Below are positions 9,444-46,491 of a stretch of 64,000 nt of DNA, piece by piece (position 1 is the stretch's first letter; every line of letters starts with the position of its first letter). This DNA is from a virus. Location of the stretch: IMG/VR virus record IMGVR_UViG_3300048589_001082, positions 36,465 through 100,464 of that record; one strand, written 5' to 3'. Under the pieces are notes generated by a model that was given only the letters and a program-made list of their open reading frames with translations, made no database searches and was not told where the DNA came from. Both the position numbers and the translations under genes were made by a program.

Positions 9444-9473
9444 AGTATCGCACAAATGTTTTATCGCGCGCAA
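9444..9473 (-). promoter_or_regulatory. sigma70-type promoter with degenerate LexA-like box in the spacer
   Basis: TTGCGC-N18-(TGc)GATACT; CGCACAAATGTTTT at 9449-9462. Confidence 0.45.
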
Positions 9474-19075: not shown

Positions 19076-19076
19076 C

Positions 19077-20745: not shown

Positions 20746-20798
20746 TGTGCCTCCCGCCCCGCCGCTCTCGCGGCGGAGCGTCTCTCTACGGCCGCCGC

Positions 20799-24200: not shown

Positions 24201-25426
24201 AGCGACAGCCCGTAGTGCTCCAGGAGGTCGGCGGCGTTGAACTCCGCCACCACGTCCGCCCCCGTCGCCGTGGCCCCGTCGGCCAGATCGTGGTACGTCC
24301 AGGTACGCATGTCGAGAATGGAGATGCTCAGGCGCGGCTGCTGCACCGCCACCTGCGAGGTGACGCGGCCTTCCTTGTCGGTCTTCTCCTCGATGACCCG
24401 GTACTCCTTGTTGAACACCCCCTTGACCATCAGGGGCGGCAGACCGCCGGCGGGGTCATCGGGCGGGATGCGGTGGCCGTTGACCAACCCCGCCGCGAGG
24501 GCCACGGCCACGTGGGCCGGGCGCGGCGGCATAACCACCGGGAAGCGGTGGCTGATGAGATCGTCCAGGCCCGTCTCCAGCCCCAGGCCGCGCACCGGGG
24601 CCAGGCGGTCGGCCCGGCCTTCCATGAGCGGCCGGGCGGCCTCGTAGAGCGCCGTCACGTCCACCGGGTTGAGCCGCCAGCCGTCCAGCGCCCCAATGCC
24701 CGCGCCTTCGCCCAGGGCAACGCGGGGTGACGCGGCGTCGAGCGAGACCAGCGCGTCGGGATGGGCGGCCCAGTCGCGCACCCGCGCCTCGGCCGCCGGG
24801 TCGGGGAAGCGGCGCGGCGTGGCCCGGCGGCGGCCGATGAGAACCACCTGCCGGAACGCCTCGTACTCCCCCGGCGGGAAGCGGAAGCAGTCCAGCGCTT
24901 CGTACTCGGCCGTCAGGTAGGCCGCCGACGCGGCCAGGGCGTAGTGGGGGACGATGTAGACCAGCCAGCCCGCGCCCGGCCGCAGGGCGGGCGTGAAGCG
25001 GGCCAGAAACCGGTGCTCCAGACGGCCGGTCTCGCGGTCGATGTCGTAGGGCGGGTTCAGGTACAGCACGTCCGCACCGGGCTTGTCCCACGACACCTGG
25101 AAGGCGTCGCCGTGGAGGGTGCGGGCGTCGGCCGTCCACACCTGCTCGACGCCGAGGACGCGGCGGCGCAGCGCGGCGGCCCGCTCCGCCTCCAGTTCCA
25201 CGGTGTAGTACTGGGCGTTGTCGGCACCGGCGCGCGGCAGAAGCGTCTCGCCCAGCGTCGTCACCGCCTCGCCGTCTCCGGCGCAGGGGTCGAGAAAAGC
25301 GTAGGTGGTGTACCGGCCGCCGCGCGGGCGGTAGGGTAGCGGCGCGAACAGGGCCGCGATCTGCTCGACCACGGATACAGGGGTCTTGTAGTAGCCGCCG
25401 ACGGCGACTGATTCCGGCCTAGCCAT
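21293..25426 (-). CDS. N6-adenine methyltransferase (DUF6094-like) fused to SF2/SNF2-like helicase
   Basis: GYYKTP, LDPCAGDG, LYLNPPY; GEVGTGKT, DEAHE, LTGT, ETGLNNL, QANGRIHRPGQ; C-terminal QLALF. Confidence 0.9.
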   Translation of the reverse strand: MARPESVAVGGYYKTPVSVVEQIAALFAPLPYRPRGGRYTTYAFLDPCAGDGEAVTTLGETLLPRAGADNAQYYTVELEAERAAALRRRVLGVEQVWTADARTLHGDAFQVSWDKPGADVLYLNPPYDIDRETGRLEHRFLARFTPALRPGAGWLVYIVPHYALAASAAYLTAEYEALDCFRFPPGEYEAFRQVVLIGRRRATPRRFPDPAAEARVRDWAAHPDALVSLDAASPRVALGEGAGIGALDGWRLNPVDVTALYEAARPLMEGRADRLAPVRGLGLETGLDDLISHRFPVVMPPRPAHVAVALAAGLVNGHRIPPDDPAGGLPPLMVKGVFNKEYRVIEEKTDKEGRVTSQVAVQQPRLSISILDMRTWTYHDLADGATATGADVVAEFNAADLLEHYGLSLAALMRRQCPPLHDPADPDALPELPPLGLVPFPYQAHGIAAALKVILAEDAPFAGEHPFVLGEVGTGKTLIAFGVAAALSPAHYARTVAQLGGRGRARPVRRVLVVCPPHLVASWAAEAAKCLPGARVVVLERVTDVDAALALPDAPPTGQPGDGLTLLLLSREYAKLGHPWGDGRAAGRCPRCGATVAATAAEVAAGRLVCDHRETRPASDAARWAERLALALAPVTPENPDLPHLARGRMVAAQRRKWAARYAAADPADVADARQAVWNSRARAAREIAAWVYAGAMAHCAAGEWSAAKAAVERLGLALWAVDATAWPGRDKAVIGMVDGLMHAADSRDSDAYTARPVRDAALHLLVGCGPEGATAALARWGERVDPTNRASVLRYLEKLAAQRAGTWTAGDNAWQTSAYEWSGGRPVKAGSYNAAAVPLGSPAAAVALLEALVGEGEWQRGEPCGERLYQAEPSPRRYPLATYISRHAPGLFDLLVLDEAHEYSTDGSAQERAAHRLTGLGRPTLVLTGTSNNGYASSLFMNMWALSRRFRDEFGRDEMEAFVNRYGYRKVRIDPDEEEIDWYNRYGAMSDRVVDSGAARKLRKIGQAPGVLPLFTLRHMLPSAILLQKSDMVEELPPLVEIGEAVAPDGPVRAEYGRLRERLVTQIMDDLRAQSPAAGLLWGQMAQMPTYLDRAHADTGNADTEGGGRRYEIRYPASIGGGLVATAEPRPAGETAAKEAWLLETLSAELAEGRRCIVFVVNTRSGLAARVLRLVEARFGAGTATLLLADKVAAGKRMEWINREVIRRGRRVLIVNPEAVETGLNNLVYFSTAVWFQNPNCSSVTYTQANGRIHRPGQTAECRVYVPYYGATTQETQFALLGHKVAAARQADGLDVTSALLAAGVGDNESTALAAMSVGQAIYHKLSAGASGDRPRFADGRRPTPTPSPSPPAPAPEAPHRPSPPSGPARQLALFG

Positions 25427-26672: not shown

Positions 26673-27119
26673 TTAGAAGGGGATGTCTTCTTCGGTCGCC
26701 AGCGCCACCCGCTCCGGGCCGCCGGCGGGCAACAGGCCGTCGCGCCACAGGGCAAGGATGGTCTCGACCGCCCGGCGTTCGTCGTCGGCCAGCCGTAGGG
26801 CCGTCTTGGCCCGCGTCAGCTCCACCTCGGCCGCCAGCAGCGCCGCTCGCTGCTCGGCCACCGTCTCGCGCTGGGCGGCCGTGGCGGCGTGGGCGGCGGC
26901 CTTGCGCTGCGTCTCGTTCGTGCCCGGCGCGTCGGCCTGGGCCAGAAGCAGGGCCGCGGCCAACCGGCCCTCGGCCGTCTCCAGATTGAACCGCGCCGAC
27001 AGCGCGGCCACCTCGGCCGTCAGTAACGCCGCGCGGGCGGCCGACAGCCGGCCGTGGCACTCGTTCAGCCGGGCCACCGTCTGGGAAAGGGTCAGCGTTG
27101 TCAGGTGTGGTTGCGACAT
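26673..27119 (-). CDS. coiled-coil protein with SSB-like EEDIPF tail
   Basis: GGAGG RBS; C-terminus TEEDIPF. Confidence 0.75.
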   Translation of the reverse strand: MSQPHLTTLTLSQTVARLNECHGRLSAARAALLTAEVAALSARFNLETAEGRLAAALLLAQADAPGTNETQRKAAAHAATAAQRETVAEQRAALLAAEVELTRAKTALRLADDERRAVETILALWRDGLLPAGGPERVALATEEDIPF

Positions 27120-27163
27120 GGAATACCTCCGTATTGTACCATCTTGGGACGAATTTCAACCAG
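27107..27163 (-). promoter_or_regulatory. promoter overlapped by 20-bp operator
   Basis: TTGAAA...(TGg)TACAAT 27133-27138; operator CTGGTTGAAATTCGTCCCAA (minus 27144-27163); half-site at 27107-27117. Confidence 0.6.
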
Positions 27164-27177
27164 TAAAGGCAAACAAC

Positions 27178-27834
27178 TCAGTCGATCTCGACCAGCACCA
27201 CCGTCGCGCCGTCGCGCGACAGGTAGGTGTACTCCCGCGCCCCGGCGTGGTACAGGAACTCGACGTACTCCCCGCGCCGGCGCGCCGACCAGCCGTGGGA
27301 GCCGTCGCCGATGACCAGCCACAGGCGCGGGAAGGCGCGGCAGAAGGCCACGGCCGCCGACTGCCACGGCGCGGCCTCGACGGTGTAGCGGGCCAGGTAC
27401 TCCGCTTCGGCCACGTCCGCGCCGAGCATGACCCGACGGCCGCCCTCGACCGCCTCGGCCCACCGGCCGTCCCAGCGCTCCGGCCGGGCGTCGTAGGCGT
27501 TGCCGTCGAAGGCCCGCAGCGACCACCCCGGCAGGCCGCGGGCGACCTCGCGCAGCGCCGGGCGCACCGCCCGTTCGCGCGTGTAGGCCGCCTCGGCCGC
27601 CGCGCGGGGGGTGGCGTGGGGCGTGGCCAGCGCCGCATCCACCACCCGCACCCGCGGGCCGCAGGCCACCCAGGCCGCGCCCGACGGGTAGACGCCGCCG
27701 GAGGGAAGTTGGCCCAGGTCGGGATCGCGTTCGGCGGCCACCCACCAGTAACCGGGGGCGTTCGGCCGCGGGGTCAGGCGAATACCCGCAACGCTGGCCG
27801 GGAAGGGAACGCCCGGCAGAACGGCGGCGCTCAC
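27178..27834 (-). CDS. hypothetical protein, probable paralog of upstream gene
   Basis: GTGA-coupled; HATPRAAAEAA. Confidence 0.65.
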   Translation of the reverse strand: MSAAVLPGVPFPASVAGIRLTPRPNAPGYWWVAAERDPDLGQLPSGGVYPSGAAWVACGPRVRVVDAALATPHATPRAAAEAAYTRERAVRPALREVARGLPGWSLRAFDGNAYDARPERWDGRWAEAVEGGRRVMLGADVAEAEYLARYTVEAAPWQSAAVAFCRAFPRLWLVIGDGSHGWSARRRGEYVEFLYHAGAREYTYLSRDGATVVLVEID

Positions 27835-28532
27835 AGCGTCCTCCCCATCAGCAGGTGCTTGCCGCCGGCGCGGGCCAGCCAGCGGGTGGACGCCCCTTCC
27901 GGGTCGCGGGCCAGCCGCGCGATCCCCACCCCACCGGCCACGGCCTCGACAACCCAGGTGCGGCACTCATCCAGGTCTTTCAGGATGACCGAGAAGCGCC
28001 GGTAGGCCGACGCCGCGGCCACGGCCTGGCGCTCCCAGGGCGCGAGGTTCTCCGGCCGCGCCGTCGGGTCGGGCCGCCACACCCAGGGAAAGTCCGGCCG
28101 GTTGCCGTCCATCAGGAAGACGGCCGCCCGGCCGCCGTGGGCGCGGGCGATACCGTCGGCCACGGGGGCCATGACCACCTCACGCCGCAGCGCCTCGGCC
28201 GCCGCCGCTTCCGGCGTCTCATGCCCGCGCGAACGATCACCGATGAGGAAACAGGGGGAATCGGCCAGATACCCCGACGCCTCGCGGTAGATGCGGCCGC
28301 CCGGCGGCGGGGCCGGCGCGCGCCTAACCCAGGGCGCGACCGTCGATGGCGCGTCCGAAGGGGTCGTGCCCCACCGGGGCACGTCCAGAGGGGTCGCGCC
28401 CCATCGGGGCACGTCCAGAGGGGTCGCGCCCCATCGGGGCACGTCCACCCACCAGCGGAACTCGCCGTCGCGCAGGCCGACGCTGACCGCGATGGGAACG
28501 CGAATGAAACCAACTCGTGTTGGATTGGACAT
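27831..28532 (-). CDS. hypothetical protein with decapeptide repeats
   Basis: DVPRWGATPL x3; HETPEAAAAEA. Confidence 0.7.
   Translation of the reverse strand: MSNPTRVGFIRVPIAVSVGLRDGEFRWWVDVPRWGATPLDVPRWGATPLDVPRWGTTPSDAPSTVAPWVRRAPAPPPGGRIYREASGYLADSPCFLIGDRSRGHETPEAAAAEALRREVVMAPVADGIARAHGGRAAVFLMDGNRPDFPWVWRPDPTARPENLAPWERQAVAAASAYRRFSVILKDLDECRTWVVEAVAGGVGIARLARDPEGASTRWLARAGGKHLLMGRTL
28351..28447. repeat. 30-bp tandem repeat, about 3.2 copies
   Basis: ACGTCCAGAGGGGTCGCGCCCCATCGGGGC: two exact copies plus one variant, no spacers. Confidence 0.95.
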
Positions 28533-28636
28533 GAGCTACACTCCCTTGTGACTATCGCGGGGAACCACTCCCGCGACGCTTGACGGCGGATAATCCCGCC
28601 GTCGGCGGCGGCCGTCGGGGCCGCCGATTGACATAA

Positions 28637-28646
28637 ATTATACCAC
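28637..28646 (-). promoter_or_regulatory. extended -10 promoter
   Basis: GTGGTATAAT with an adjacent GC hairpin at about 28652-28678. Confidence 0.55.
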
Positions 28647-28815
28647 AGGCCACCGGCGGCCGGTAGACGGCCGCCGGTTTTCGACTTATGGATTTTGTCG
28701 GATTTCTGTCTGTGGAAAGCCCACGGGGGCAAGGGCCGCGGCGCGCTCAGTACGGCGACGGCCGATCGGCCGCGCGCCGGCGCTTACTTAGGTGGCGAAG
28801 AGGCGCGCCGCGCGA

Positions 28816-29466
28816 CTACCGCCACGCGGCCGAATACTCCCCCTGCCGGAACAACTCCGGCAACGCCACCTGTTGCTTGAAGCGCAGCACCTCATCGGCG
28901 TCCATGCCCAGCTCGCGGGCGATCTCGTCGTCGGCCCAGCCCTCGCGCAGCATGGCGGCGACGATGTCGGCCATCGGCATGACGCCGTGGACGCCGCGAG
29001 CGCGGTTGTGGCGAATGGTGGCCGCCATCCGGTCGCGGGCAGCCGTGCGGCCGTGGTTGACCACCGCCACCGGCAGGTAGCCGTGGACGCGCCTGCGGAC
29101 GGCCGCGTCCTCCCTGCCCACCCGGCTGCGATGCTCGCCGTCCACCACGCCCAGGGCGTCGCCGTCGCGCCAGGCCACCACCGGCTGGGTGTAGCCGTCG
29201 GCGCGGATGCTGTGCCGCAAGAGGCGCATCTCCGGCGGGGCCACCGCGTTGGGGTTATAGTCGTTCGGCCGCACGTCCTCGGCCGGCGCCCACAGCACGC
29301 AGTCCACCGGCTCGGCGGCGAACGGCCCGGCCTCGTGGAGCATCGTCCGCATCCGGTTCAGCGCCTCGACCTGCTGGGCCAGCGGCAGCGCCGCCAGTCG
29401 CTCGGCTAGAGGCCGCAGCTCCTCGACCAGCGCGTCTACAGTGGTATCAAACAGGGATGACGTCAC
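28816..29466 (-). CDS. ibrB: IbrB/YbdM-like ParB/sulfiredoxin-domain protein
   Basis: EPVDCVLW...NDYNPNAVAPPEMRLL..SI..DGYTQPVV...VVDGEHR...RMAATIRHNRARGVH. Confidence 0.9.
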   Translation of the reverse strand: MTSSLFDTTVDALVEELRPLAERLAALPLAQQVEALNRMRTMLHEAGPFAAEPVDCVLWAPAEDVRPNDYNPNAVAPPEMRLLRHSIRADGYTQPVVAWRDGDALGVVDGEHRSRVGREDAAVRRRVHGYLPVAVVNHGRTAARDRMAATIRHNRARGVHGVMPMADIVAAMLREGWADDEIARELGMDADEVLRFKQQVALPELFRQGEYSAAWR

Positions 29467-29920
29467 CGGCTACCTCCTTGTCGTAGTAAGTCCACTGGCC
29501 GCGCACCGAGGCCACGCGCCAGCCGCGCCGCTCGAACATCGGCCGCGAGTGGGCGTTGGCCAGCCCCTTGACCACCCGCGCCCCGGCCGCGGCGCACAAC
29601 TCGTACTTGATGTCGAACAGACGGCCGAACAGCCCGCGGCGGCGATGCTCCGGGAAGACGTAGGTCTCATTGAACCAGGCGACGCCCTTCACGGCGTCGA
29701 ACCGGTAGCCGGAGAAGGCGACGATCTCGCCGCCGCGCACCACCACCAGCCAGACGTGATCCGGCGAGTCGGTCAGCGGGCCGCCCAGCTCCTTGCGGAT
29801 GCCCGCGTCGGCAAAGAACCGCCCCATCCGGCAGTAGAACTGGTCATCGCCGGCGCTGCTGGTGCGGTATATCTGGTACTCGCCGTCCGGGTCAAAACGG
29901 TCTATATGCTCCATGCTCAT
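29447..29920 (-). CDS. GNAT-family acetyltransferase
   Basis: YVFPEHRRRGLF; NAHSRPMFERRGW; ATGA-coupled to ibrA. Confidence 0.85.
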   Translation of the reverse strand: MSMEHIDRFDPDGEYQIYRTSSAGDDQFYCRMGRFFADAGIRKELGGPLTDSPDHVWLVVVRGGEIVAFSGYRFDAVKGVAWFNETYVFPEHRRRGLFGRLFDIKYELCAAAGARVVKGLANAHSRPMFERRGWRVASVRGQWTYYDKEVAGDVIPV

Positions 29921-31287
29921 AAGTCCTTCCACTTGTCCTTCAACTCGGCCGCCCGGTCGCGCGGCGGCTGGCGCAGCGACAGCCGCTCCGGCCGCGACTG
30001 GAACGCCGGGTCGAGCAGTTGGGTGATCGGCCGTCCGCGGGCCGCCTCCGGCGTGGGCGGCAGGTCGAGCGGCTCGCCGGCCTCGTGTTTGCGCACCAGT
30101 TCCATGTACTGGTCATACTCGCCCAGGTTGATGTTGAACGCCAGCCCGGTGCAGAAGAAGTCGTTCTTGAGCAGCACGTGGGCCACCATGCGCCACGAGC
30201 CGCCCAGCTTCTTGGCCTCAAGCGCCGGGTCGCTCTCTTCCTGAAGGTCGGCCCAGCCGTTGTAGCGCTCAAACCACTCCACGAAGACGCGGATGCGCCG
30301 CCAGTAGTGGGCGCGCAGGGGAACCGGCAGGGCGTCGAGCAGGACGAGGGCGTACTCGCGCCAGGTCATGCCCTCCGGCCGCCGCGCCTTGCGGCCGTAG
30401 TTGAACAGCACCGACCGGCCCTGCTGCGCCGCCAGGTTGGCCCCGCCTACCCGCTCCACCAGCCGCGCCCAGGTCTGCGGTTCCAGCACGCGGTACTTGT
30501 CCAGGTGCTTGCGGGCCTCCAGCGAGTACGGCTCGCAGATACGCATCTCGTGCAGGCTCATCCCGGCCAGCCACATGCGGTCGTAGATGTGGTTGTAGCC
30601 TATCCCCTCGCGGCCGATGTACGTCCACACGTCCTCCACCCGCCAGTCGTAGAGCGGGTAGAAGTTCCACGAGTTGTCGGCGATCCGGGTAGACCAGGGC
30701 ACGGCCGCGCCCTCGCGCTCGTAGTTGCGCCGGCCGCGAGTGCGCTTGATGGTGCGAAACCGGTTCATGCTCTCGTCGGCGCGGATGCCCACCAGCGATG
30801 CCACCGCCCCGCCCTGCCCGGCGTACCAGGCGTCGTAGCCGGAAACGAAGTCCTCGAAGGTCTGCCCGAAGCGGTAGAAGGGGAAGCGCTCCGGGTCGCT
30901 GACGACGCCCGGCGCGTCGGGCAACGGCCGCACCCAGCGGTCGCGCCGGGCCGGGTCCCAGGCGGTGAACATCGGGTCATAGACCGACGTCTCGTTGGAC
31001 GTGGAGATGGGCAGGCAGACCCAGACCGGGTTGATGCCCGGCCGGGCCAGCGCCTCGGCCACGTGGTCGATGGTCGCCTGGTACTGGGCCTCCCAGTCGA
31101 TAAACAGAGCGTCGATGGTTCGGCCGCGCCGCACCGCCTCGCGCCGGGCCATCTCCAGCAGCACCGTCGAGTCCTTGCCGCCGGAGAACGAGACGGCCAC
31201 GCGGTCGAAGGTGTCGAAGACGAAGCCCAGCCGCTCGACGGCCGCGTCGTGGACGTTGGTTTGCAGGTAGACCTTCGTGCCGCTCAT
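29917..31287 (-). CDS. ibrA: IbrA/YbdN-like PAPS-reductase-family (PP-loop) protein
   Basis: VSFSGGKDS; FIDWEAQY; GIRADESMNR; YPLYDW; MRICEPY; SWR....LLKNDF. Confidence 0.9.
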   Translation of the reverse strand: MSGTKVYLQTNVHDAAVERLGFVFDTFDRVAVSFSGGKDSTVLLEMARREAVRRGRTIDALFIDWEAQYQATIDHVAEALARPGINPVWVCLPISTSNETSVYDPMFTAWDPARRDRWVRPLPDAPGVVSDPERFPFYRFGQTFEDFVSGYDAWYAGQGGAVASLVGIRADESMNRFRTIKRTRGRRNYEREGAAVPWSTRIADNSWNFYPLYDWRVEDVWTYIGREGIGYNHIYDRMWLAGMSLHEMRICEPYSLEARKHLDKYRVLEPQTWARLVERVGGANLAAQQGRSVLFNYGRKARRPEGMTWREYALVLLDALPVPLRAHYWRRIRVFVEWFERYNGWADLQEESDPALEAKKLGGSWRMVAHVLLKNDFFCTGLAFNINLGEYDQYMELVRKHEAGEPLDLPPTPEAARGRPITQLLDPAFQSRPERLSLRQPPRDRAAELKDKWKDL

Positions 31288-32726
31288 AGCGCCTTGACCA
31301 TGCCCTTGACCAACTCGCGGTCGTCCTTGACCCGCGCCACCTCGCGCCGGAACTCGTCGGCGGCGTTGGCCTTGCGGGCCAGGGCGCGGGCGATGCGCTC
31401 GTCGATGGAATCGACGCAGGTCAGGGTTACGTAGGTGACCGGCCGCGTCTGGCCGATGCGGTGGCAGCGGTCTTCGGCCTGGACGCGCGTGGCGTACTTG
31501 AACTCGTCGGCGTAGAAGATGACGGTGGACGCCTCGTTGAGCGTCAGCCCGTGGCCGCCGGCGGCCTGGGTGGCCACCAGGAACCGCGCCTCGCCACGCC
31601 AGCGGGCTAACTCCGCGTTGCGCGCCCGCTCCGACAGGCGGCCGTGGAACTCGGCCGTGGACGCCTCGCCGTAGACGGCCTGCAACCAGCCGACGATCTC
31701 GCGGATGCAGGCGTGGTACTTGGCCCAGATGATGACCTTCTCGCCGGCCGGCACGTCGCGCAGCACCGACAGCAGCAGGCCGATCCGCTCGTGCTTCAGG
31801 GCGATGCACGCCATCCGGCCTGTCTCCGGGTCGCGCCGGTTGCGGAAGCCGCACACGACCTGCTGCAAGGCGCTGAAGAGCCGGAAGATGACGTACTCGT
31901 CGAACTCGTCCGGCTCGTCCAGCGCCGACAGAATCTCGTCCTTGACACCGTCGTAGGCGGCGTCCTGCTCGGCCGTCATCCGGTAGTAGCGCGACTCGCG
32001 CAGCTTCGGCGGCAGGTCAAGGCACTCGGCCTTGGTCACCTGGTAGGTGTAGGGCGCGAGCCGGGCGGCCAGATGCTCGGTGTGCAGCGCCCGAACGACC
32101 TGGCCGGGGTACTTGTCGCTGTACTGGAGGTGGTTGGCGGCGAAGGTGTGGAACGACCGGTAGCCGAGTATCTTGGGCGACAGGAACTTCATCTGGGCGA
32201 AGAGGTCTTCCACCCCCTGGCTGACCGGCGTGCCGGTCAACAGCAGCCGGTAGCGGGCCGGTTCGGCCAGAAGGGTGATGCGCTGCGTCCGGCGCGCGGC
32301 GTGGCCCTTGATGTAGCTCGACTCGTCCACAATGACAAATGTCCGTTCAGTGATGAGCGCCTTGACCGCCAGCGTTACCCGGTCGCTGGTGGACATCGAC
32401 TCGATGCCGACGACGTAGAACAGCGCCGCCGGCAGATGGCGCGGCGAGGTGCGGTCATCGAAGACGTAGACGGCCGCGCCGTCTGTGTGGTCACACTGCG
32501 TGTGTTTCCCAATCTCGTGGCGGATCGTTTCCTTGAGCGACACCGGGCAGAACCACACCACGCGGTCAATGCGCTCGCGCCGCAGCCAGGCCAGTTCGAT
32601 GGCGCAGCGGGTCTTGCCCGTGCCCATCTCCATGAACGCCCCACCCACCCGCGCCCGCCGCAGCTTCTCCACGGCGCGGCGCTGGTGATCATAGAGCGTC
32701 GTCGTCGTCTGCCAGTTCGGGATCAA
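31284..32726 (-). CDS. SNF2-family helicase
   Basis: MEMGTGKT; VDESS; LTGTP; GGHGLTL; QAEDRCHRIGQ. Confidence 0.95.
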   Translation of the reverse strand: MIPNWQTTTTLYDHQRRAVEKLRRARVGGAFMEMGTGKTRCAIELAWLRRERIDRVVWFCPVSLKETIRHEIGKHTQCDHTDGAAVYVFDDRTSPRHLPAALFYVVGIESMSTSDRVTLAVKALITERTFVIVDESSYIKGHAARRTQRITLLAEPARYRLLLTGTPVSQGVEDLFAQMKFLSPKILGYRSFHTFAANHLQYSDKYPGQVVRALHTEHLAARLAPYTYQVTKAECLDLPPKLRESRYYRMTAEQDAAYDGVKDEILSALDEPDEFDEYVIFRLFSALQQVVCGFRNRRDPETGRMACIALKHERIGLLLSVLRDVPAGEKVIIWAKYHACIREIVGWLQAVYGEASTAEFHGRLSERARNAELARWRGEARFLVATQAAGGHGLTLNEASTVIFYADEFKYATRVQAEDRCHRIGQTRPVTYVTLTCVDSIDERIARALARKANAADEFRREVARVKDDRELVKGMVKAL

Positions 32727-33348
32727 GGCCGTACTCCATAATCGGGACTTGGGGCCGCGCCGCCGGCAGCGGCGGCGGGTCGAACACCAGGGCGGCGCGC
32801 ACGCGGGCCTCGGCCGCGTCGATGACTTCCTGCGCGGTGGGGCTGATGTAGAAACCGTGGCGCTCGGCGAAGTCGCGCACGGCCTCGAACTGATCCGGCG
32901 GTACCACCAGGTAGGGCCTGTCGTAGCGTCGGCCGGGGATGCGGTCGTAGGCGGCGTAGAGCTTCCTGTCCTCCTCGTCGTCGCGCGGCCACTTCAGCAG
33001 CAGCCACCCGGCGTAGTCGCCGCGCGACCGGCGCAGGACGAGGCGGCGCTTCTCCGGCGCGTAGGCCACGTCCATGACCATCCGCGCCAGCTCGTCGGTT
33101 AGCTCGACGGCGAACCCGGCCGCCAGCAGCAGGTGGGCCGTCTCGGCCGCGCGGTCGGCCGCCGGGCCGGTGACATCGCCCACCGTTCGCTCCCAGCGCC
33201 GGTGCGTCCAGTTCCAGGTGAACTCGCGCGCCTTGAGTAGCTCGCGGAAGTCGTCGCGCCGCTCGTCCAGCGTGACCAGGACGGCCGCGTCGTCCGTCCA
33301 GACGTGGGCGATGGTGGCGGTGATGGGTTTAGTCGGCCGCAGGAGCAT
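32689..33348 (-). CDS. helicase-associated hypothetical protein (possible HARP-like)
   Basis: FRELLK...FTWN...RRW; IPGRRYD...VVP..FEAVRDFAERHGF; overlaps SNF2 start. Confidence 0.65.
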   Translation of the reverse strand: MLLRPTKPITATIAHVWTDDAAVLVTLDERRDDFRELLKAREFTWNWTHRRWERTVGDVTGPAADRAAETAHLLLAAGFAVELTDELARMVMDVAYAPEKRRLVLRRSRGDYAGWLLLKWPRDDEEDRKLYAAYDRIPGRRYDRPYLVVPPDQFEAVRDFAERHGFYISPTAQEVIDAAEARVRAALVFDPPPLPAARPQVPIMEYGLDPELADDDDAL

Positions 33349-33359
33349 GGAAACCTCCT

Positions 33360-33596
33360 CTACAGGGTCACGATCTCCGCCCGCGGCAGGGCGTGTTGCA
33401 CAACGGCCACGGCCGTCGCGTCAGGCAACAGGACGATGAGGTTGAGCATGTCGGCATACTCGGCCAGCGCGGCGACGGCCGCCACGTCGCCCAGGTCGAA
33501 CGGCGCGTCCGGTTCCAGCACCTGCATTACGTCATCCAGTACGGCCAGATCGGCCGGAAGATAGAAGTCGCCGGTTAAATTGAGTAATGTTTTCAT
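33360..33596 (-). CDS. hypothetical protein
   Basis: ATGA-coupled MKTLLNL. Confidence 0.6.
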   Translation of the reverse strand: MKTLLNLTGDFYLPADLAVLDDVMQVLEPDAPFDLGDVAAVAALAEYADMLNLIVLLPDATAVAVVQHALPRAEIVTL

Positions 33597-34315
33597 TGCT
33601 TTAGTGCCCCCGCCACGTCCCGCAGCATGTCTGAGAGCGCCATTTCCTCGTTGAGGAAAGTGGGTTCCCGCTCTAACTCGGCCGCAGTCGGCTCCTCGCT
33701 GTAATAAACGCGAATCATCTCCGACCGCAAGCGCTCCAGCGCGGCGTAGGCCGAGTGGTAGTCCATGTAACTGGTGTACCACCACTTGGCGGCCAGTTCC
33801 TCCGACAGCGGCGCGACGGTGCGATGCCAGCGGCGGTAGGCTTCGACCGGCGGCAACTCGCGTAGGTAGTCCAGCAAGTGGCGGGCCTCGGCCGCGTCGG
33901 CCAGAACGTTGGGCGGGATCGTCCGGCGCTCCTCCTCGCTAAAGGCGCTCAGGTAGTTGGGGGCCAGCACCATGAGGTATCCGAACCCCCTGGCGCTATC
34001 CGGCACTCTGGTCAGAACCGGAATGCCCCGCGCCCGGAGTTCACCGGCGGCGATCTCCAGCCGCCGGGCAAGGACGGCCGCCTCCAGACCGTCCAGCGCA
34101 TAGCGGTTCATGTCGGCCACGAGGGCGGTCATCCGCTCATCGGGGAGAATGTGGAGAGGCCCGCGTTTCTCGCCGCGAGCCTGCCGACGCCCCCACTCAG
34201 TGTCGATGAGGGACATCATCATCTCGCTTTGCGATAGCCCACCGCGAGCCTGGCGCATGGCGTCCAGCCGCTCGACGTGGGTCTCCGGTAACCTGACGTT
34301 GAATTGTGTCCTCAT
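33593..34315 (-). CDS. protein with N-terminal ribbon-helix-helix domain
   Basis: MRTQFNVRLPETHVERLDAM......SQSEMMMSLID. Confidence 0.75.
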   Translation of the reverse strand: MRTQFNVRLPETHVERLDAMRQARGGLSQSEMMMSLIDTEWGRRQARGEKRGPLHILPDERMTALVADMNRYALDGLEAAVLARRLEIAAGELRARGIPVLTRVPDSARGFGYLMVLAPNYLSAFSEEERRTIPPNVLADAAEARHLLDYLRELPPVEAYRRWHRTVAPLSEELAAKWWYTSYMDYHSAYAALERLRSEMIRVYYSEEPTAAELEREPTFLNEEMALSDMLRDVAGALKQ

Positions 34316-34383
34316 GATACCCTTCCTCTAGTCGCCCATCCCGGCCGGTGGTCTTCGGCCGATCCCGCACGCTGTAAATGTCC

Positions 34384-35244
34384 TTACAGCGCGATCTCCC
34401 AGTAATGCGTCCGCGCCTCCTGCTCGTTGTCCCACAGGGAGCGATACTCCCACGCATCCCCATCCTCGGCCAGATAACCGCCCGCCTCTACGGTCAGATA
34501 GAGGATCAGACCGTTGTCCGTCTCGATCCGCCGCAGCGATTTCTCGGAATAGTTCCGGTAGCCGCCTGCTTTTTCCTCGGCCAGCGTTTCGCGCCGCACC
34601 GAGGAGACCATCATGAGCGGCCTCCAGCGATCATCGGTGCGCCAATAACGCCGCCGCAGCGCCGCCGCCAGTAGTTCATTGGCCTCCGGGGTGAGCTGCA
34701 CCACCGGCTTCTCGTCGTAGTGGGCCGGATGAACCTTGCTGGGTAACGCGATCCCATCCGACCACAGCGTGAATGTGTAATGGGCGAAAACGAGTTCCGC
34801 TCCGGGCGTGAAGTCGAGCGTCTGCGGGTGGCGCTTGTTGCGAATGCTGGCCAGCGCGGCGCGCTCGCACAGCAGCACCCACGGCTCGCCGATCTGCGAC
34901 GGTTCTACAAACCGCCCCCGGCGGCCGTCGCCGATCTGGCCGCCCGCGAGCACCTGAGTGGCGAACTCCCAATCCCACCATGCCGGCAGCTGGGCCTCGA
35001 TCCATTCCCGGATCGCCGGCGTGATCGCCGTGGCAATGGCCGCATCAATGGACGCCGGCTTCCCCGGCGGCCGATTGAAATGCACCACCAGGAGCCGAAG
35101 GCCGTCAAACGCCACGGAGTAACTGGGTTCATGCTTGTCGGACAGGATGTAGACGTTCGGAATCTGATCCAGCAGATGCCATTCCATCTCTATTGGCGCT
35201 AAGTCTGCGGGGATGTGGCTGCTCAATTCCAGTTCAGTCGTCAT
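34384..35244 (-). CDS. hypothetical protein
   Basis: GAGG RBS; first gene after consensus promoter. Confidence 0.75.
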   Translation of the reverse strand: MTTELELSSHIPADLAPIEMEWHLLDQIPNVYILSDKHEPSYSVAFDGLRLLVVHFNRPPGKPASIDAAIATAITPAIREWIEAQLPAWWDWEFATQVLAGGQIGDGRRGRFVEPSQIGEPWVLLCERAALASIRNKRHPQTLDFTPGAELVFAHYTFTLWSDGIALPSKVHPAHYDEKPVVQLTPEANELLAAALRRRYWRTDDRWRPLMMVSSVRRETLAEEKAGGYRNYSEKSLRRIETDNGLILYLTVEAGGYLAEDGDAWEYRSLWDNEQEARTHYWEIAL

Positions 35245-35260
35245 GGCGTCCTCTCGTGCG

Positions 35261-35310
35261 ATGTATAGCAGATATGCTATACATTATAACGACATGACCG
35301 AAAATGTCAA
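35261..35310 (-). promoter_or_regulatory. consensus promoter with palindromic operator
   Basis: TTGACA-N16-TATAAT; ATGTATAGCA-GATA-TGCTATACAT at 35261-35284. Confidence 0.8.
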
Positions 35311-35330
35311 TAGGGTTGCGTGATTTTGGT

Positions 35331-35444
35331 CTACTTCTTCCGGCCCCTCGGCCGCGGCAGGTCATCACTGGTCAGCACGACGTAGGCCAGCAGCAGAACG
35401 ACGAAGACCGCACCAAACAGGATAACGAACTCGCTTTCGGACAT
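35331..35444 (-). CDS. small single-TM peptide
   Basis: MSESEFVILFGAVFVVLLLAYVVL...RGRKK; GGAGG RBS. Confidence 0.55.
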   Translation of the reverse strand: MSESEFVILFGAVFVVLLLAYVVLTSDDLPRPRGRKK

Positions 35445-35446
35445 GG

Positions 35447-36730
35447 CTACTCCACCTCCTGATGCAACCGCTCCGCCTCGGCCGCCGCCGTCCACTCGCG
35501 CCACAGCGCCGCGGCCTCGACCTCGGCCGCCGCCGCGCAGTAAGTCAGTCCGTGGGCCAGTCGCCGCCCCTCGGCCGCCTCGCCCATGTGCCAGGCCACG
35601 GCCGCCCGCAGCACGCCGTTGACCAGGTTCCGCTCGCTCCGCTCGTCGCGCCGCCGCAGCTCGCCCGCCTCCCACCGCGCCCAGGCCCGCGCCAGCCGCG
35701 GGAAGCGATGGGCCAGCGGCCGCCAGTCGGCCCACAGAGCGTCATCCGCCTCGCGGTACACGACCGGCAGGCCGAAGTGGCGGATGAGCCAGGGCGTGTG
35801 GCCCGCACGGTGCAGCGCCGCCAGACGCACCTGGGACGAGGAATGGCCGCCCCGCCTGGTCATGCGGGCGATCTGGCTGAAGGGGATGCCCACGGCCGCG
35901 GCCAGCACGAGGAAGGCGTCCCCGGCCGGCGTGCCGTGCAGGTGCAGCGTCGTCGTCCCCTTGCCCTTCAGGAAGCGCACGCCCGGCGCGACGGCCGCCG
36001 AGCGGCGCACCATCCAGTTGCCCCAGCGCACGGCCGCCAGCTTGCCGAGGCGGATGGCGCGGTTGACGTCAGTATGCTCCACGCCGTGGTAGGCGGCGAC
36101 CTCGCCCGGCGTCCACCACTCGTCGGGGCGGCCGTCGGGGGCCAGCCAGCGAGCCTTCTGCCGGACGATGAGCCGCCGCAGCCCCTCGTCGCCCAGCCGC
36201 TCCGGGCGGCGCACCGAACGGTAGAAGAAGGGCCAGTTGTCCGGCCGCGTGGCCCACACCAGGAAGTGCGCCCGGCGCATCCGCCACACCTTGCGCGTCG
36301 GCAGCGGGGCGATCTCGGCCGGCAGGTGGCCCCGCTCGATGAGGACACACACCTGATGTACATCGATGCCCAGGGCGCGGGACATGTCGTGGGCCGTCAG
36401 GTAGTCGGCGTAGACCATCGGCCCGCGCAGGCCACACCGGAGGCGTCGCACGCGCACGGCCGTCATCGACCGCCCCAGCCGCCGGGCGATCTCCTCGTCG
36501 CCCAGCTCCCCGGCCCACGTTTCCAGGAATTGCTGCTCGGCCGCCGTCCAGCGGTTGGCGCTGGTGGCCCGGCTTGGGTGGGGCGCGCCGGGTGTCTGAC
36601 GCGCGGCGGCAATCGTCCGCGCCGCGCCGTAGGCCCCGGCCAGGAGCGCCGGGTCACGGCCCGCGGCCAGCGCCTCTTGCAGCACGACCGCGTCCAAGAG
36701 ACCGTCGAGGTCGAACGTCACGTCAGTCAC
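35447..36730 (-). CDS. multi-HTH DNA-binding protein (Myb-like + excisionase-type HTHs), paralog A
   Basis: WTAAEQQFL...IARRLGRS; WWTPGEVAAYHGV.H.D.NR.IR.G.L.AV.W.NW. Confidence 0.75.
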   Translation of the reverse strand: MTDVTFDLDGLLDAVVLQEALAAGRDPALLAGAYGAARTIAAARQTPGAPHPSRATSANRWTAAEQQFLETWAGELGDEEIARRLGRSMTAVRVRRLRCGLRGPMVYADYLTAHDMSRALGIDVHQVCVLIERGHLPAEIAPLPTRKVWRMRRAHFLVWATRPDNWPFFYRSVRRPERLGDEGLRRLIVRQKARWLAPDGRPDEWWTPGEVAAYHGVEHTDVNRAIRLGKLAAVRWGNWMVRRSAAVAPGVRFLKGKGTTTLHLHGTPAGDAFLVLAAAVGIPFSQIARMTRRGGHSSSQVRLAALHRAGHTPWLIRHFGLPVVYREADDALWADWRPLAHRFPRLARAWARWEAGELRRRDERSERNLVNGVLRAAVAWHMGEAAEGRRLAHGLTYCAAAAEVEAAALWREWTAAAEAERLHQEVE

Positions 36731-38345: not shown

Positions 38346-39588
38346 CTTGTCTTTCTCCCGACGGCCGCGCGGCCGTCTTCGCTCCCAACAGTTCCTCAAA
38401 CAACACCTGCGCCCGGCGCAGACGCGCCGCGCTGGCATCCCCCCGCCCCACCAGCGGCGACGCCTCCGGCGCGTGGAAGCGCAGCGCCGCGCCCAGCACC
38501 CCGTTCAATAGGCCGCGCTCGACGCGGCTGAGCGACCGGCCCTCGGCCAGCCGCGCCCAGACGCGCGCCAGGCGCGGGAAGCGGTGGCTGACCGCGCGCC
38601 AGTCGGCCCAGGTCAATGCCCCCCGCGTCTGAATGGGCAGGGCGTAGGCGCGGGCCAGATGCGGCACGAGGCCGCGCTGCACGATGACCCGGTGCCGCGT
38701 CACGACACCGGCGTCGGAGATACGGCCGCCGGTCATCCGGGCCACCTGGGGCGACGGGATGCCCACCGCGACCGCCAGCACGAGAAAGGCGTCCAGCCCC
38801 ACCGTGCCGCGCCGGGCGAGATGGCCGTCGGCGATGCGGTAGACGCGGAAGCCGGGTCGGGTCGCCTCCGAGCGTAGCACCCGCCAGTTGTCCCACTTGA
38901 CCGCCGGCAGCCAGCCGCGGCGGATGTAGCGGTTGATGTCGATGTGGCTCACCCCGTGGTAGGCGGCGACCTCGCCCGGCGTCCACCAGGCGTCTGGCTG
39001 CCCGTCGGCGCACGTCCAGCGCTCACGCCGGCGCGCGACCAGGCGCCGCAGCTTCTCGTCGGTGATGCGCTCCGGCCGCTCGACCGAACGCCAGAAGTAG
39101 ACCCAGTTGGCGGGGTTGGTCGCCCAGGCGTAGAACGCCGCCCGGCGCGTCCGCCACATGAGCCGGTCGGACGACAGCGGGACCCGCTCGGCCCTTATCT
39201 CCCCGCGCTCGATGAGCTTGGCGACGGAGTGCTCGTCTATGCCCATCGACACGGCCATCTGCGTGCCCGTCACGAACTCCGGGTGTTTGGAGGCGGACGG
39301 TAGGCCGCGCCTGGTCTGCTGCGTCTCGACCGCCGAGGCCGTGCGCCCCAGACGCGCCGCCAGCTCGTCCACGCCCAGCACGCCCGACCACCGCGCCAGA
39401 TACGCCGCGTCGGCCGCCGTCCAGAGGTTGGCCGCGCCGACGGTCGGCCGCGCTGCGGTCGATCCGGCCGCGGCGATGGCCCGTGCCGCGCCGAACTGCC
39501 ACGCCGCGAGAACGGGATCGCGCCCGGCCTCCAGCGCCGCGTCGAGCACCACCCCGTCAAGCAGGGCGTCGAGGTCGAAGTCACTCAT
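38338..39588 (-). CDS. multi-HTH DNA-binding protein, paralog B
   Basis: FDLDALLDGVVL..AL.AGRDP; WWTPGEVAAYHGV; ADWR...HRFPRLAR.W, all shared with 35447-36730. Confidence 0.75.
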   Translation of the reverse strand: MSDFDLDALLDGVVLDAALEAGRDPVLAAWQFGAARAIAAAGSTAARPTVGAANLWTAADAAYLARWSGVLGVDELAARLGRTASAVETQQTRRGLPSASKHPEFVTGTQMAVSMGIDEHSVAKLIERGEIRAERVPLSSDRLMWRTRRAAFYAWATNPANWVYFWRSVERPERITDEKLRRLVARRRERWTCADGQPDAWWTPGEVAAYHGVSHIDINRYIRRGWLPAVKWDNWRVLRSEATRPGFRVYRIADGHLARRGTVGLDAFLVLAVAVGIPSPQVARMTGGRISDAGVVTRHRVIVQRGLVPHLARAYALPIQTRGALTWADWRAVSHRFPRLARVWARLAEGRSLSRVERGLLNGVLGAALRFHAPEASPLVGRGDASAARLRRAQVLFEELLGAKTAARPSGERQGE

Positions 39589-40649
39589 ACGGCCGTCTCC
39601 TCCGCCTGCGCCTTCACCGCTCCCACCAACCGCCCCAACAGCGCGGCTCCCTGGCACAGCTCGCACACCCTGGGGATGGGCGGGCCGTCGCGCCGGGCGC
39701 AGGCGGCGCACGTCTCGGCCGCCGCTCGCTCGACGATCTCCCACGCCGGGATGACGTCGGCCCCGGCCGGGCGCACGGCGCACCCCCGGCACATGGCCTC
39801 GGCCGCCGCGCCGATGGTCGCCGTCACCGCCCGGCGCGCGCCCGCGCCGTAGGCCACCAGCGGCACAGGATGGGCCACTGTGCCGTTGCGGCCGGGCGAC
39901 CCGCCCGGCCCCCCTACCCCATTGGCTCCGGGCACGGCCGCAGCGCGCCCGGCGTGGCGCCGGCGGCCCTCCTCCAGCGCCTCGGCCTTGCGGGCGATCT
40001 CCTCGGCCGTCCGGTCGCACGCCCGCAGCGACGCCTGCAACCCCAGCCCGTGCCGGGCCAACTTCTCGGCCAGCGGCACGCGGGCCTCCGGCGGCAGCAC
40101 GTATAGCTTCTCGGCCAGACGGCCGTCCTTGGACAGATGGCCCAGGGCCACGAGGCTCTGAATCTCCGGCTCCAGCTTCAGCCACGCCAGCCGGCCGTTG
40201 ATGGTCGGCAGCGACTTGCCCGTCTCGCGGGCGATGCGCAGCCGCGCCCAGCCGTGGTCGATGAGACCCTGGTAGACGCGGGCCTCGTCGATGGGGTTGA
40301 GGTCTTCGCGGTGGAGGTTCTCCAGCGCCTGGCGCACCAGCCGTTCATCGGCCGCGCGCGCCGGGGCGACGACGGCCGGGATGGTTTCCCGCCCGGCCAA
40401 CTTCGACGCCCGCCAGCGCCGCTCGCCGTGGTGAATGCGGTAGCGGCCGTCGGGCGTCTCTTCAACCTCGATGGGCTGGATGACGCCGTGCTGCCGGATG
40501 CTCTCGGCCAACGCCGCCAGCGCCGCCTCATCGAAGTGGGTGCGCGGCTGGGCCGGGTCGCGGTCGATGAGCGCGACGGGGATATGGAGGGCCTCAATGG
40601 CCCCTTCGGCCTCGATGGCCTGCGGCTGAATTGGTTGTGTGTTACTCAT
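39585..40649 (-). CDS. parB: ParB/RepB/Spo0J-family protein
   Basis: QPRTHFDEAAL..LAESIRQHGVIQPI; GERRWRA; ENLHREDLNPIDEA. Confidence 0.9.
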   Translation of the reverse strand: MSNTQPIQPQAIEAEGAIEALHIPVALIDRDPAQPRTHFDEAALAALAESIRQHGVIQPIEVEETPDGRYRIHHGERRWRASKLAGRETIPAVVAPARAADERLVRQALENLHREDLNPIDEARVYQGLIDHGWARLRIARETGKSLPTINGRLAWLKLEPEIQSLVALGHLSKDGRLAEKLYVLPPEARVPLAEKLARHGLGLQASLRACDRTAEEIARKAEALEEGRRRHAGRAAAVPGANGVGGPGGSPGRNGTVAHPVPLVAYGAGARRAVTATIGAAAEAMCRGCAVRPAGADVIPAWEIVERAAAETCAACARRDGPPIPRVCELCQGAALLGRLVGAVKAQAEETAV

Positions 40650-42005: not shown

Positions 42006-42338
42006 TTACCACTCTACCCAGAACGCGGCCTGACGGATACCGTCAACAACGCGCCCGAAGTGCCTGAGGTAGTGGTTGACGATCTCCTGTTGCCACGGCT
42101 CCGCATCCTCCAGCCAATCCTCCTTTATGGTGATGTAGCAACCGTTATGAACCTGCTCCATGTCGAGGACAAAGTGCCAGAAGTCCCGGTAGGGAGCGGT
42201 TGCGTCATGGCCGCCATCGTCATACCTGCGGGCATAGTCACGCTCGTCATAGCCGTACTTGACTTCGAGCCAGTCCCGGCACTCGTTGTAGTCGTAAGCC
42301 CGTCTGGTTTTGGGCCGGGGCTTTTTCAACTCACTCAT
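42006..42338 (-). CDS. hypothetical phage protein
   Basis: PYRDFWHF...NG. Confidence 0.7.
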   Translation of the reverse strand: MSELKKPRPKTRRAYDYNECRDWLEVKYGYDERDYARRYDDGGHDATAPYRDFWHFVLDMEQVHNGCYITIKEDWLEDAEPWQQEIVNHYLRHFGRVVDGIRQAAFWVEW

Positions 42339-43335
42339 GACCCACCTCCAAACCCGTCGAATTCGACGGGTTTACCCAGCCGTGCCCACCGGCCAGCTTC
42401 CCGGCCAGATGAGCGAACAGCCCGTCGAACGTCACCCCGTAGAGCGACGCCAAGACGGCCAGGTAGTAGGCCACGTCGGCCAGTTCATCAATGACGGCCG
42501 CGTTGTCGCGCACCGTGCCCGGCTTGAAAAGTTGCTTCTTGATAAGGTCGGCCACCTCGCCTGCCTCGCCAACCAGGCCCAGCACGGCGGGAAGGAGCTG
42601 CGCGGTGAAGGAGCCGCCGGCCGCGCCCCACGTCGCCAGCACTTGCCGCTGGTAGGCGTCAGGTGCGGCGTCCGGCGTGGCCCATGACGGCGGGCTGACC
42701 TCCTCCACGATGTCCCATAGCGTGCTGCCCTTCACCGTCAGGCCGCGCTTCGGGCCGGGTGGGCCGATAAGCTCCAGAAACAACTGGCCGTGCTTCAGGC
42801 GCGGGCTAAGCGCCGGGCCGGCGAAGCCCTTGACCCAACGGCCGTCGCCGGGCCGAACGTCGAGCGCCGCTTCCATCGCCCTGACCAATGCTCCATCATG
42901 CGTCCACGCCCGGTAGGTCGAGGCGAGGCGCACCGGGCGGCCGTCGGCCGTCTCGCCGCGCAACGTCACCCGGAAGAGGCGGGGTGGCAGACAATCCTGC
43001 GAAGGCGCGGGGCCGCCGGCGGCTAACGGCAACTCCGGCGCGCCGGTCAGCCGGGCCACGCGCACTGGGTCGGCCTCGGTCACGACATCGCTCAATTGCG
43101 CGTGGCCGGTTACGAACAGGCCACGTTCGCACAGGTCGAAGACCAGCGAACGCGGGCCGGGATAGCCGTCCCCCTCCGGGTAGCGCCACCCAATGGCGCT
43201 CCAGTCAGGGTAGTCGAACTCGGCCGCCACGGCCTTCTTCACCGCCAGCTCCTCGTTGCGGGCCTGCACGGTCTCGTTGACCTCGCGCGGCTTGTTTTCG
43301 TAGTAGCCCTTGATACCCACGTCGAACCATCTCAT
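42331..43335 (-). CDS. protein with C-terminal MazG-like NTP pyrophosphohydrolase domain
   Basis: YQ...LGLVGEAGEVADLIKK...DELADVAYY. Confidence 0.8.
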   Translation of the reverse strand: MRWFDVGIKGYYENKPREVNETVQARNEELAVKKAVAAEFDYPDWSAIGWRYPEGDGYPGPRSLVFDLCERGLFVTGHAQLSDVVTEADPVRVARLTGAPELPLAAGGPAPSQDCLPPRLFRVTLRGETADGRPVRLASTYRAWTHDGALVRAMEAALDVRPGDGRWVKGFAGPALSPRLKHGQLFLELIGPPGPKRGLTVKGSTLWDIVEEVSPPSWATPDAAPDAYQRQVLATWGAAGGSFTAQLLPAVLGLVGEAGEVADLIKKQLFKPGTVRDNAAVIDELADVAYYLAVLASLYGVTFDGLFAHLAGKLAGGHGWVNPSNSTGLEVGHE

Positions 43336-46478: not shown

Positions 46479-46491
46479 TCTCCTCATCACA

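Follow-up and report, generated by a model that had tools for sequence, protein, structure and literature searches.

A mobile SNF2-IbrA-IbrB cassette with an optional acetyltransferase in a tailed phage, and its possible role in DNA modification

What might a phage do with a PAPS-reductase-like enzyme, a ParB-like protein, an SNF2-family motor and an acetyltransferase whose genes overlap end to end in a single operon? Such an operon lies on the minus strand, at 28816-35244, of the window analyzed here, a 64,000-nucleotide stretch (bases 36465-100464) of the 100,464-bp IMG/VR virus record IMGVR_UViG_3300048589_001082, which has ~69% G+C and is estimated to be 89% complete. Its eight genes are, in the order of reading, p286, RHH240, p78, p219, SNF2, IbrA, GNAT, and IbrB (Table 1; all positions are those of the window unless stated otherwise). 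An earlier note on this DNA had taken all eight as one self-contained unit and as a candidate new DNA modification system with acyl transfer on DNA. We find that the operon is a mobile five-gene cassette (p219, SNF2, IbrA, GNAT, and IbrB; 28816-33348) with three lineage-specific genes in front of it, that p219, SNF2, IbrA, and IbrB are an obligate four-gene core, and that the GNAT is a dedicated, optional third enzyme of IbrAB cassettes. As to function, an ATP-driven, motor-coupled covalent modification of DNA that serves the phage is the best reading, and we give it a probability of about 0.5.

IbrA and IbrB belong to known, named families; for the cassette p219-SNF2-IbrA-(GNAT)-IbrB, no published description was found in the limited literature searched. 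What is new is the linkage seen from the side of p219, the natural fusion of p219 to SNF2, the reciprocal tests of the GNAT, and the frame of promoter, operator, and terminator around the phage copy. The units of the system are now defined: the four-gene core, an optional GNAT dedicated to IbrAB and, in this phage, a cassette of only 4.5 kb that comes with a promoter and a candidate repressor.

Every one of the eight genes is present where the earlier note had placed it, and all have a coding-type composition, with a G+C content of 0.79-0.94 at third codon positions (GC3) and of 0.33-0.47 at second codon positions (GC2); most are preceded by a Shine-Dalgarno sequence. The last five genes overlap at their ends, as had been noticed: by 38 nt for p219/SNF2, by 4 nt (ATGA) for both SNF2/IbrA and IbrA/GNAT, and by 20 nt for GNAT/IbrB. 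The true start of IbrA is the ATG at 31287, which lies in the ATGA overlap with the SNF2 stop codon; the 645-amino-acid (aa) IbrA given by the longest open reading frame is an over-extension and was rejected.

Linkage of the cassette genes and the boundary of the cassette

In the p219-anchored loci of IMG/VR, which range from 29 to 70% G+C, SNF2 and IbrA follow p219 in 33 of 33 cases, and IbrB is present in 32 of the 33, the single exception ending at a contig edge. A profile search finds 1334 cluster representatives of the p219 family, many of them proteins of ~380-410 aa in which p219 makes up the C-terminal half, and one homologue (P0014, 891 aa) is a natural fusion of an N-terminal extension, p219, and SNF2. 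When loci are instead anchored on IbrA, IbrB adjoins it in 77 of 80 genome loci and 28 of 29 viral loci, whereas SNF2 is found in 19 and 10 of these, respectively. Since the linkage from p219 is complete, and since many IbrAB loci have no SNF2, IbrAB is the ancient pair; p219-SNF2, looked at from its own side, is a module invariably tied to it. The IbrAB genes themselves are widespread (> 326 genome stretches matched), although their products are routinely mislabelled as “PAPS reductase” and “ParB partition protein”.

A protein of 250-332 aa, with no Pfam family, stands between SNF2 and a shorter IbrA match in another cassette subclade. It occurs in ~9-11 of the p219-anchored loci (L153-L157, L161, L162, L167, L171, L174, and L176) and may be a further accessory component.

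The view of the operon as a single eight-gene system does not survive comparison with related loci. The order p219-SNF2-IbrA-GNAT-IbrB is kept in the IbrA-anchored IMG/VR loci L005-L013 and L032, down to 46% IbrA identity, and relatives of p286, RHH240, or p78 were found neither in these loci nor in any other related cassette locus. The three upstream genes also have a lower GC3 (0.79-0.82) than the five cassette genes (0.89-0.94). When the 34 other proteins of the window were compared with the related viral loci, the only ones shared were a ParB, with a match in L007, and a DnaB, with a weak match in L030; both matches lie at a distance from the cassette, so that there is no synteny past the five cassette genes. 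Neither p286 nor RHH240 has a relative in IMG/VR; p286 also has no match in Pfam, PHROG, PADLOC, or the ESM Atlas, and p78 is without a family match.

The closest relatives of the cassette, ~75-86% identical, are found in Logan and ENA assemblies, and homologues of RHH240 exist at 72-78% identity. For two of the latter (P0203 and P0205), the longest contigs measure 19,756 and 9,970 bp; the same two figures are given for the p219 homologues P0005 and P0006 (76-77% identity), and the GNAT homologue P0172 (74%) is likewise listed at 19,756 bp. Because of these matching figures, RHH240 probably travels with the cassette, in close relatives only. An RHH240-related domain as an N-terminal extension of the p219 homologues in L007 and L032 was also considered and dropped, as neither BLASTP nor Pfam gave anything.

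A GNAT dedicated to IbrAB cassettes

The GNAT between ibrA and ibrB, which the earlier note had singled out, is not a sporadic insertion. The IbrA clade to which the window belongs (support 99) comprises 10 viral contigs, and all 10 have p219, SNF2, and the GNAT; over the wider set of p219-anchored loci, the GNAT is present in 12 of 33. Using a GNAT profile built from twelve clade members, we found the same subfamily adjoining IbrA/IbrB in 9 of 80 genome loci, which are spread over Planctomycetota, Thermodesulfobacteriota, Actinomycetota, Bacillota, Bacteroidota, and Pseudomonadota and which show several gene orders: IbrA-GNAT-IbrB, SNF2-GNAT-IbrA-IbrB, and SNF2-IbrB-IbrB-GNAT-IbrA, with the GNAT of one further arrangement (L054) ~1.3 kb upstream of IbrA-IbrB. 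The distribution of the GNAT label over the IbrA tree requires 9 changes, at least 7 of them forced, and none of 500 label shuffles gave as few.

The association also holds in the reverse direction. In five genomes searched for the GNAT, the best full-length match was always the IbrA-linked gene. Among 401 Streptomycetaceae genomes, the three strongest matches, all full-length, lie in the order IbrA-GNAT-IbrB; of the other eleven, ten cover the generic GNAT core only and one (L138) is near full-length, and none stands beside IbrA/IbrB. Within the subfamily, the N-terminal signature FY..MG..FA..EL..P..W is conserved, and the coenzyme A (CoA) loop R93..G96 is near-invariant (R/Q-x-x-G). Among isolated phages, the GNAT had 0 matches in 50,697 phage records.

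Two side observations concern the loci in which this GNAT is found. L007 carries a second GNAT paralogue (9150-9548 of that locus) with a degenerated CoA-loop motif, making a GNAT pair. In addition, contigs that have IbrA-GNAT-IbrB and no SNF2, among them records of 372 and 497 kb, contain two LAGLIDADG homing-endonuclease genes (3999-4982 and 5543-6937 in L014) directly upstream of IbrA.

Protein features and the case for a DNA-directed function

IbrA matches PAPS_reduct (PF01507, 60.6 bits) and DUF3440 (PF11922, 84.2 bits), both over the cut-off. Its PP-loop, SFSGGKDS (aa 33-40), is intact and is invariant across 15 to 22 homologues, and FIDWEAQY, G.R..ES, YP.YDW..D.W, and MR..EP are further conserved motifs. 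Among its cysteines, C379 alone is near-invariant, and there is no CxxC motif. In the AlphaFold2 (AF2) model, the N-terminal domain, with a predicted local distance difference test score (pLDDT) mostly > 80, is closest to APS/PAPS reductases, CysD, FMN adenylyltransferase/FAD synthase, and TtuA, and in a sequence search of the PDB, CysD is the sole match. Judged by these motifs and this model, IbrA fits an enzyme of ATP alpha-beta cleavage with adenylyl transfer or activation; it fits neither CysH-type thiol reduction nor DndC-type sulfur insertion by an iron-sulfur (Fe-S) cluster.

IbrB scores 17 bits against Pfam ParB_N, under the cut-off of 26.3, and in a profile search of the PDB its N-terminal domain matches those of ParB and Noc; this ParB/Srx-fold domain has VVDGxHR, which resembles ParB box II, and a conserved TIRHNRARGxH, and it is followed by a conserved, helical C-terminal region that resembles a helix-turn-helix. 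The SNF2 protein matches phrog_62 at 330 bits, has all of the ATPase motifs I, II, III, and VI (GTGKT, DESS, LTGTP, and QAEDRCHRIGQ), and gives partial PADLOC matches to ZorD and DpdE (DpdE at 92 bits). The AF2 model of p219 (pLDDT 90) consists of two tandem beta-beta-alpha-beta-beta-alpha domains and a conserved acidic C-terminal tail.

Several known systems share parts of this set. The two-protein core, in the same order of IbrA then IbrB, is found in E. coli as IbrA/IbrB of the ECOR-9 island and as the paralogues YbdN/YbdM of K-12. The E. coli proteins have the same PP-loop and DUF3440, and the IbrA of the window shares 37% identity with an E. coli chromosomal copy and 37-42% with further copies in enterobacteria; however, the enterobacterial loci are without p219, SNF2, and GNAT, whereas the pair in the window lies within a five-gene, translationally coupled cassette. 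Among isolated phages, Clostridium phage phiCs5676-1 carries the full four-gene core behind its endolysin gene, as a p219-domain protein, a helicase, a PAPS reductase, and a ParB-like protein; there p219 forms the C-terminal half of a protein of 389 aa, unlike the 219-aa p219 of the window. Furthermore, helicase-IbrA-IbrB modules (PHROGs 2302, 2159, and 62) occur in Streptococcus phages Bsingle and CHPC1230 and in Microcystis phage Mwe-JY13. None of these isolated-phage modules has a GNAT, and their IbrA is only 35-41% identical to that of the window. The GNAT fold itself is shared with Mu Mom and with TmcA, the tRNA N4-acetylcytidine synthase, which couples a helicase-type ATPase to a GNAT.

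A ParB-fold partner of a DNA-modifying enzyme has precedents. ParB-like proteins activate phage thymine dioxygenases (PMC13229309), and the same is cited for DpdA and its partner DpdB in PMC10164549 and PMC12839542; a protein of the ParB NTPase fold is needed or stimulatory in these cases. The Dpd cluster also encodes an SNF2 protein, DpdE, which the SNF2 of the window resembles in part. These systems differ in their catalysts, a tRNA-guanine transglycosylase (TGT) or an iron/2-oxoglutarate-dependent dioxygenase, whereas that of the window is a PP-loop protein; a DpdA-type TGT (PF01702) is absent from the 100-kb record.

We favor DNA modification because of the obligate link to SNF2, the published ParB-like activators, and the DNA methylases that neighbor the cassette in this phage. 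In such a scheme, p219 would be a detached N-terminal DNA-recognition module that binds DNA and partners the minimal SNF2 motor, which would move along duplex DNA and expose target sites. IbrB, with its ParB/Srx NTPase fold, would load on DNA and activate or position IbrA, and IbrA would use ATP at its PP-loop to adenylylate a DNA group, which would then be displaced or substituted. Where present, the GNAT would cap an amine, made or attached earlier, using acyl-CoA. The net result would be a covalent mark on phage DNA, perhaps also on host DNA, for example for restriction evasion or as an epigenetic signal. We infer every one of these biochemical steps, as well as DNA as the substrate. A narrower version, which we put forward as a tentative and rather doubtful proposal, is that the cassette installs an undescribed modification in which IbrA adenylylates a base or backbone oxygen exposed by p219-SNF2, with IbrB as the loading factor, an amine displaces the adenylate, and the GNAT N-acylates that amine. 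Such a reaction would give phages of many phyla a new way to hypermodify DNA after replication, one that depends on ATP and acyl-CoA. If the cassette does modify DNA, this would be new chemistry for phage anti-restriction and epigenetics, and it could explain gene activation by IbrAB. The expectation of a candidate new DNA modification system holds in part: the obligate coupling to SNF2 and the published ParB-like partners of DNA-modifying enzymes make a role directed at DNA reasonable, but a one-off new system is not borne out, as IbrA and IbrB belong to established PHROG and Pfam families found in many isolated phages.

Several observations weigh against DNA modification. The likeness of p219 to the N-terminal DNA-binding domains of helicases is suggestive only: among its best fold matches are the N-terminal domain of XPB for the first half of the protein and that of T4 UvsW for the second, and these matches are weak (Z 5.0-5.7 over 56-62 residues, with a root-mean-square deviation of 2.1-2.5 Å), below the level that excludes chance (Z < 8; Foldseek E 0.1 or worse), with 0 Foldseek matches at E <= 0.001. 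The C-terminal domain of the IbrA model is of low confidence. Many chromosomal IbrAB pairs have neither SNF2 nor GNAT, which means that the core reaction may not need a DNA motor. The acyl transfer on DNA that the earlier note had proposed finds no direct support: the nearest solved relatives of the GNAT are B. subtilis YjcF and acetyltransferases of small molecules or protein N-termini, and a profile comparison with Mu Mom gives no similarity (hhalign probability 0.5%, E = 0.11). No mechanistic papers on IbrA/IbrB or YbdN/YbdM were found in the limited literature searched. Finally, Sandt and colleagues reportedly found, in 2002, that IbrAB activates the prophage eib genes, so that the pair is possibly regulatory.

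This last point leads to the first of the rival explanations, in which IbrAB are co-activators of gene expression, IbrB binds DNA or spreads on it like ParB, SNF2 remodels nucleoprotein, and the set turns on genes of the phage or its host while leaving no stable covalent mark. To our knowledge, activation of eib is the only phenotype reported for IbrAB, and gene activation is the only one known of the enterobacterial loci; the pair is annotated in isolated phages as “co-activator of prophage gene expression”, the ParB-type N-terminal domain and conserved helical C-terminal region of IbrB would suit such a role, and the remodelling of nucleoprotein is a classic activity of SNF2 enzymes. A purely architectural regulator would nevertheless hardly account for a PP-loop enzyme that is strictly conserved or for a dedicated acyltransferase, and the passage of the cassette through unrelated phages of 29-70% G+C argues against a role tied to particular promoters, so that we regard regulation alone as unlikely. 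An improbable explanation to a similar degree is that the substrate is not DNA but a nucleotide, a small molecule, or a protein, for example a host immune signal or defence protein, while SNF2 and p219 only sense DNA or localize the enzymes to it. It is consistent with the substrates of the closest solved relatives of the GNAT (polyamines, amino acids, phosphinothricin, and protein N-termini), with the small-molecule substrates of CysD and FMN adenylyltransferase, the structural relatives of IbrA, and with the presence of NTPases and sulfiredoxin among ParB/Srx-fold proteins; the obligate coupling to p219-SNF2 and the natural fusion of these two point instead to duplex DNA, as do the DNA methylases around the cassette.

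The cassette could also be a defence module (moron) carried by a resident phage or phage-plasmid, which would shield the lysogen from other phages. Such a role would fit an operon with a promoter, an operator, and a terminator-like hairpin of its own, and it would also fit the resemblance of SNF2 to ZorD, DpdE, and DrmD of defence systems in PADLOC. Moreover, the phage encodes ParA, ParB, DnaB, and an initiator, and the 100-kb, 89%-complete record yielded neither a tyrosine nor a serine integrase, which suggests a persistent, plasmid-like state. The cassette, however, encodes neither a nuclease nor any other effector, and it fits none of the PADLOC system models. Its copies in isolated phages also vary in place: three phages have it behind their lysis genes, and in mycobacteriophages and an Arthrobacter phage it lies close to the left end of the genome (genes 3-6). 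Defence is for us a quite improbable role. A phosphorothioation-like reaction, with IbrA acting like DndC, SspD, or BrxP and with sulfur from a host cysteine desulfurase, seems the least probable of these explanations, and very unlikely in itself. DndC/DndB, SspD, and BrxP of BREX type 4 do share with IbrA a PAPS-reductase-superfamily ATP pyrophosphatase and, as in DndB, a ParB-fold partner on DNA (PMC10853773, PMC12914056, PMC12839542); host IscS can replace DndA (PMC10853773), BrxP-type systems make phosphorothioate (PMC12914056), and IbrA gives weak, partial PADLOC matches to DndC (28.5 bits) and BrxP (23.6 bits). These matches cover only the PP-loop or a stretch of 60-70 aa (~70 aa for DndC and 25 aa for BrxP), and there is no PADLOC match to DndD, DndE, or SspB/C among the seven operon proteins scanned. 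With its one near-invariant cysteine, IbrA has neither a Cys triad nor a CxxC with which to hold an Fe-S cluster or relay a persulfide, and a cysteine desulfurase, of which the earlier note had seen none in the window, is absent from the whole 100-kb record (PF00266, with positive controls that worked), although a host enzyme could substitute. It is the lack of DndC-type cysteines in IbrA together with the missing desulfurase that makes phosphorothioation unlikely.

Operon frame and phage surroundings

The operon is self-contained in the sense that the earlier note had proposed, with its own promoter, operator, and terminal hairpin, and with a next gene that has its own extended -10 element. 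The promoter is the sole 12/12 match to TTGACA-N16-18-TATAAT on both strands of the whole 100,464-bp record, and the perfect palindrome that had been seen with it is likewise unique in the genome. The core of the palindrome, GTATAGCA-N4-TGCTATAC, lies at 35263-35282, and its extended form, of 10 + 4 + 10 nt, is ATGTATAGCA/TGCTATACAT (Table 1). Allowing for up to 3 mismatches, there is 1 copy in the window against 0.03 expected, and the 9-nt half-site has no other copy in the genome. The palindrome reaches over the final two positions of the -10 hexamer and over the site where transcription is expected to start. RHH240, whose ribbon-helix-helix (RHH) domain matches RHH_1 of Pfam at 24.5 bits against a cut-off of 20.5, would be the protein that binds it. 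Because the palindrome overlies the -10 element and start site and the operon encodes an RHH protein, negative autoregulation by RHH240 appears to be the simplest reading of the operator, and the strong promoter in front of the cassette is probably autoregulated. The timing put forward in the earlier note, expression upon entry followed by shut-off, is a conjecture from where the operator lies.

At the other end of the operon, the hairpin behind ibrB (dG -36.1 kcal/mol, z -4.43) presumably terminates transcription, and it is followed by an extended -10 element, TGgTATAAT (28645-28637), that serves the next gene. A search of Rfam for structured RNAs and ribozymes gave 0 matches at gathering score in the whole window and 0 at E <= 1 for 27000-36000.

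Table 1. Positions in the window of the operon elements and of other phage genes named in the text
Feature	Coordinates	Strand	Remarks
Sigma-70-type promoter	35283-35310	-	TTGACA 35310-35305, 16-nt spacer, TATAAT 35288-35283
Candidate operator	35261-35284	none	Perfect palindrome ATGTATAGCA-tatc-TGCTATACAT; presumed RHH240 target
p286	34384-35244	-	First gene, orphan; GC3 0.79; GAGAGGA ribosome-binding site in front
RHH240	33593-34315	-	Ribbon-helix-helix at aa 5-33, then ~200 aa without assignment; candidate autorepressor
p78	33360-33596	-	Small open reading frame; ATG overlaps RHH240 stop (ATGA, 4 nt); GC3 0.80
p219	32689-33348	-	SNF2 partner, 219 aa; assigned by AF2 model and family linkage
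SNF2	31284-32726	-	Minimal SNF2-family ATPase, 480 aa, TTG start; SNF2-rel_dom and Helicase_C
IbrA	29917-31287	-	PAPS_reduct and DUF3440; phrog_2302, 288 bits
GNAT	29447-29920	-	Acetyltransf_1, 31.9 bits (cut-off 20.7)
IbrB	28816-29466	-	phrog_2159, 218 bits
Terminator-like hairpin	28652-28678	-	11 bp, G+C, no T-run; 138 nt past ibrB stop
ParA-type ATPase	58504-59451
Replication initiator	53564-54913
DnaB	52148-53536
C5 cytosine methylase	44679-46490		Dcm-like
MazG-like pyrophosphohydrolase	42331-43335
Canonical ParB	39585-40649		ParB_N and HTH_ParB
DUF6094 methylase	21293-25426		Fused to a second SNF2/DEAD-type helicase region; 1377 aa
SpoU-family methylase	20290-20955
Dam-like D12 methylase	18065-19234
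Second GNAT	13240-13605		Unrelated to the operon GNAT; Acetyltransf_1, 40 bits

Outside the window, the record encodes a 1402-aa tape measure protein, a portal, head-morphogenesis proteins, a head protease, and an endolysin domain, and these structural genes identify it as a tailed phage, possibly one that persists as a plasmid-like prophage, in view of its ParA and the lack of an integrase match. Nearly all genes of the phage are on the minus strand, where they read in the order of replication genes, Dcm-like methylase/MazG/ParB, the operon, the DUF6094 protein, the SpoU methylase, and the Dam-like methylase. The phage is dense in genes that mark nucleic acids, namely the DUF6094, Dam-like, C5 cytosine, and SpoU methylases and the MazG-like enzyme. 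The best match of its DnaB in any isolated phage is ~40% identical.

Directly downstream of the operon, the gene at 27831-28532 is without a family match and contains a 30-bp tandem repeat (28348-28447; 3.3 copies, 92% matches) that encodes DVPRWGATPL repeats. Beside the replication genes, two near-consensus sigma-70-type promoters, at 51810-51839 (minus strand) and 51881-51909 (plus strand), are divergent, and the pair at 51810-51909 may be a regulatory switch region. At the very start of the record (C1:1-60, outside the window), there is a run of ~28 G, which probably arose as an artefact of assembly or sequencing where the contig ends.

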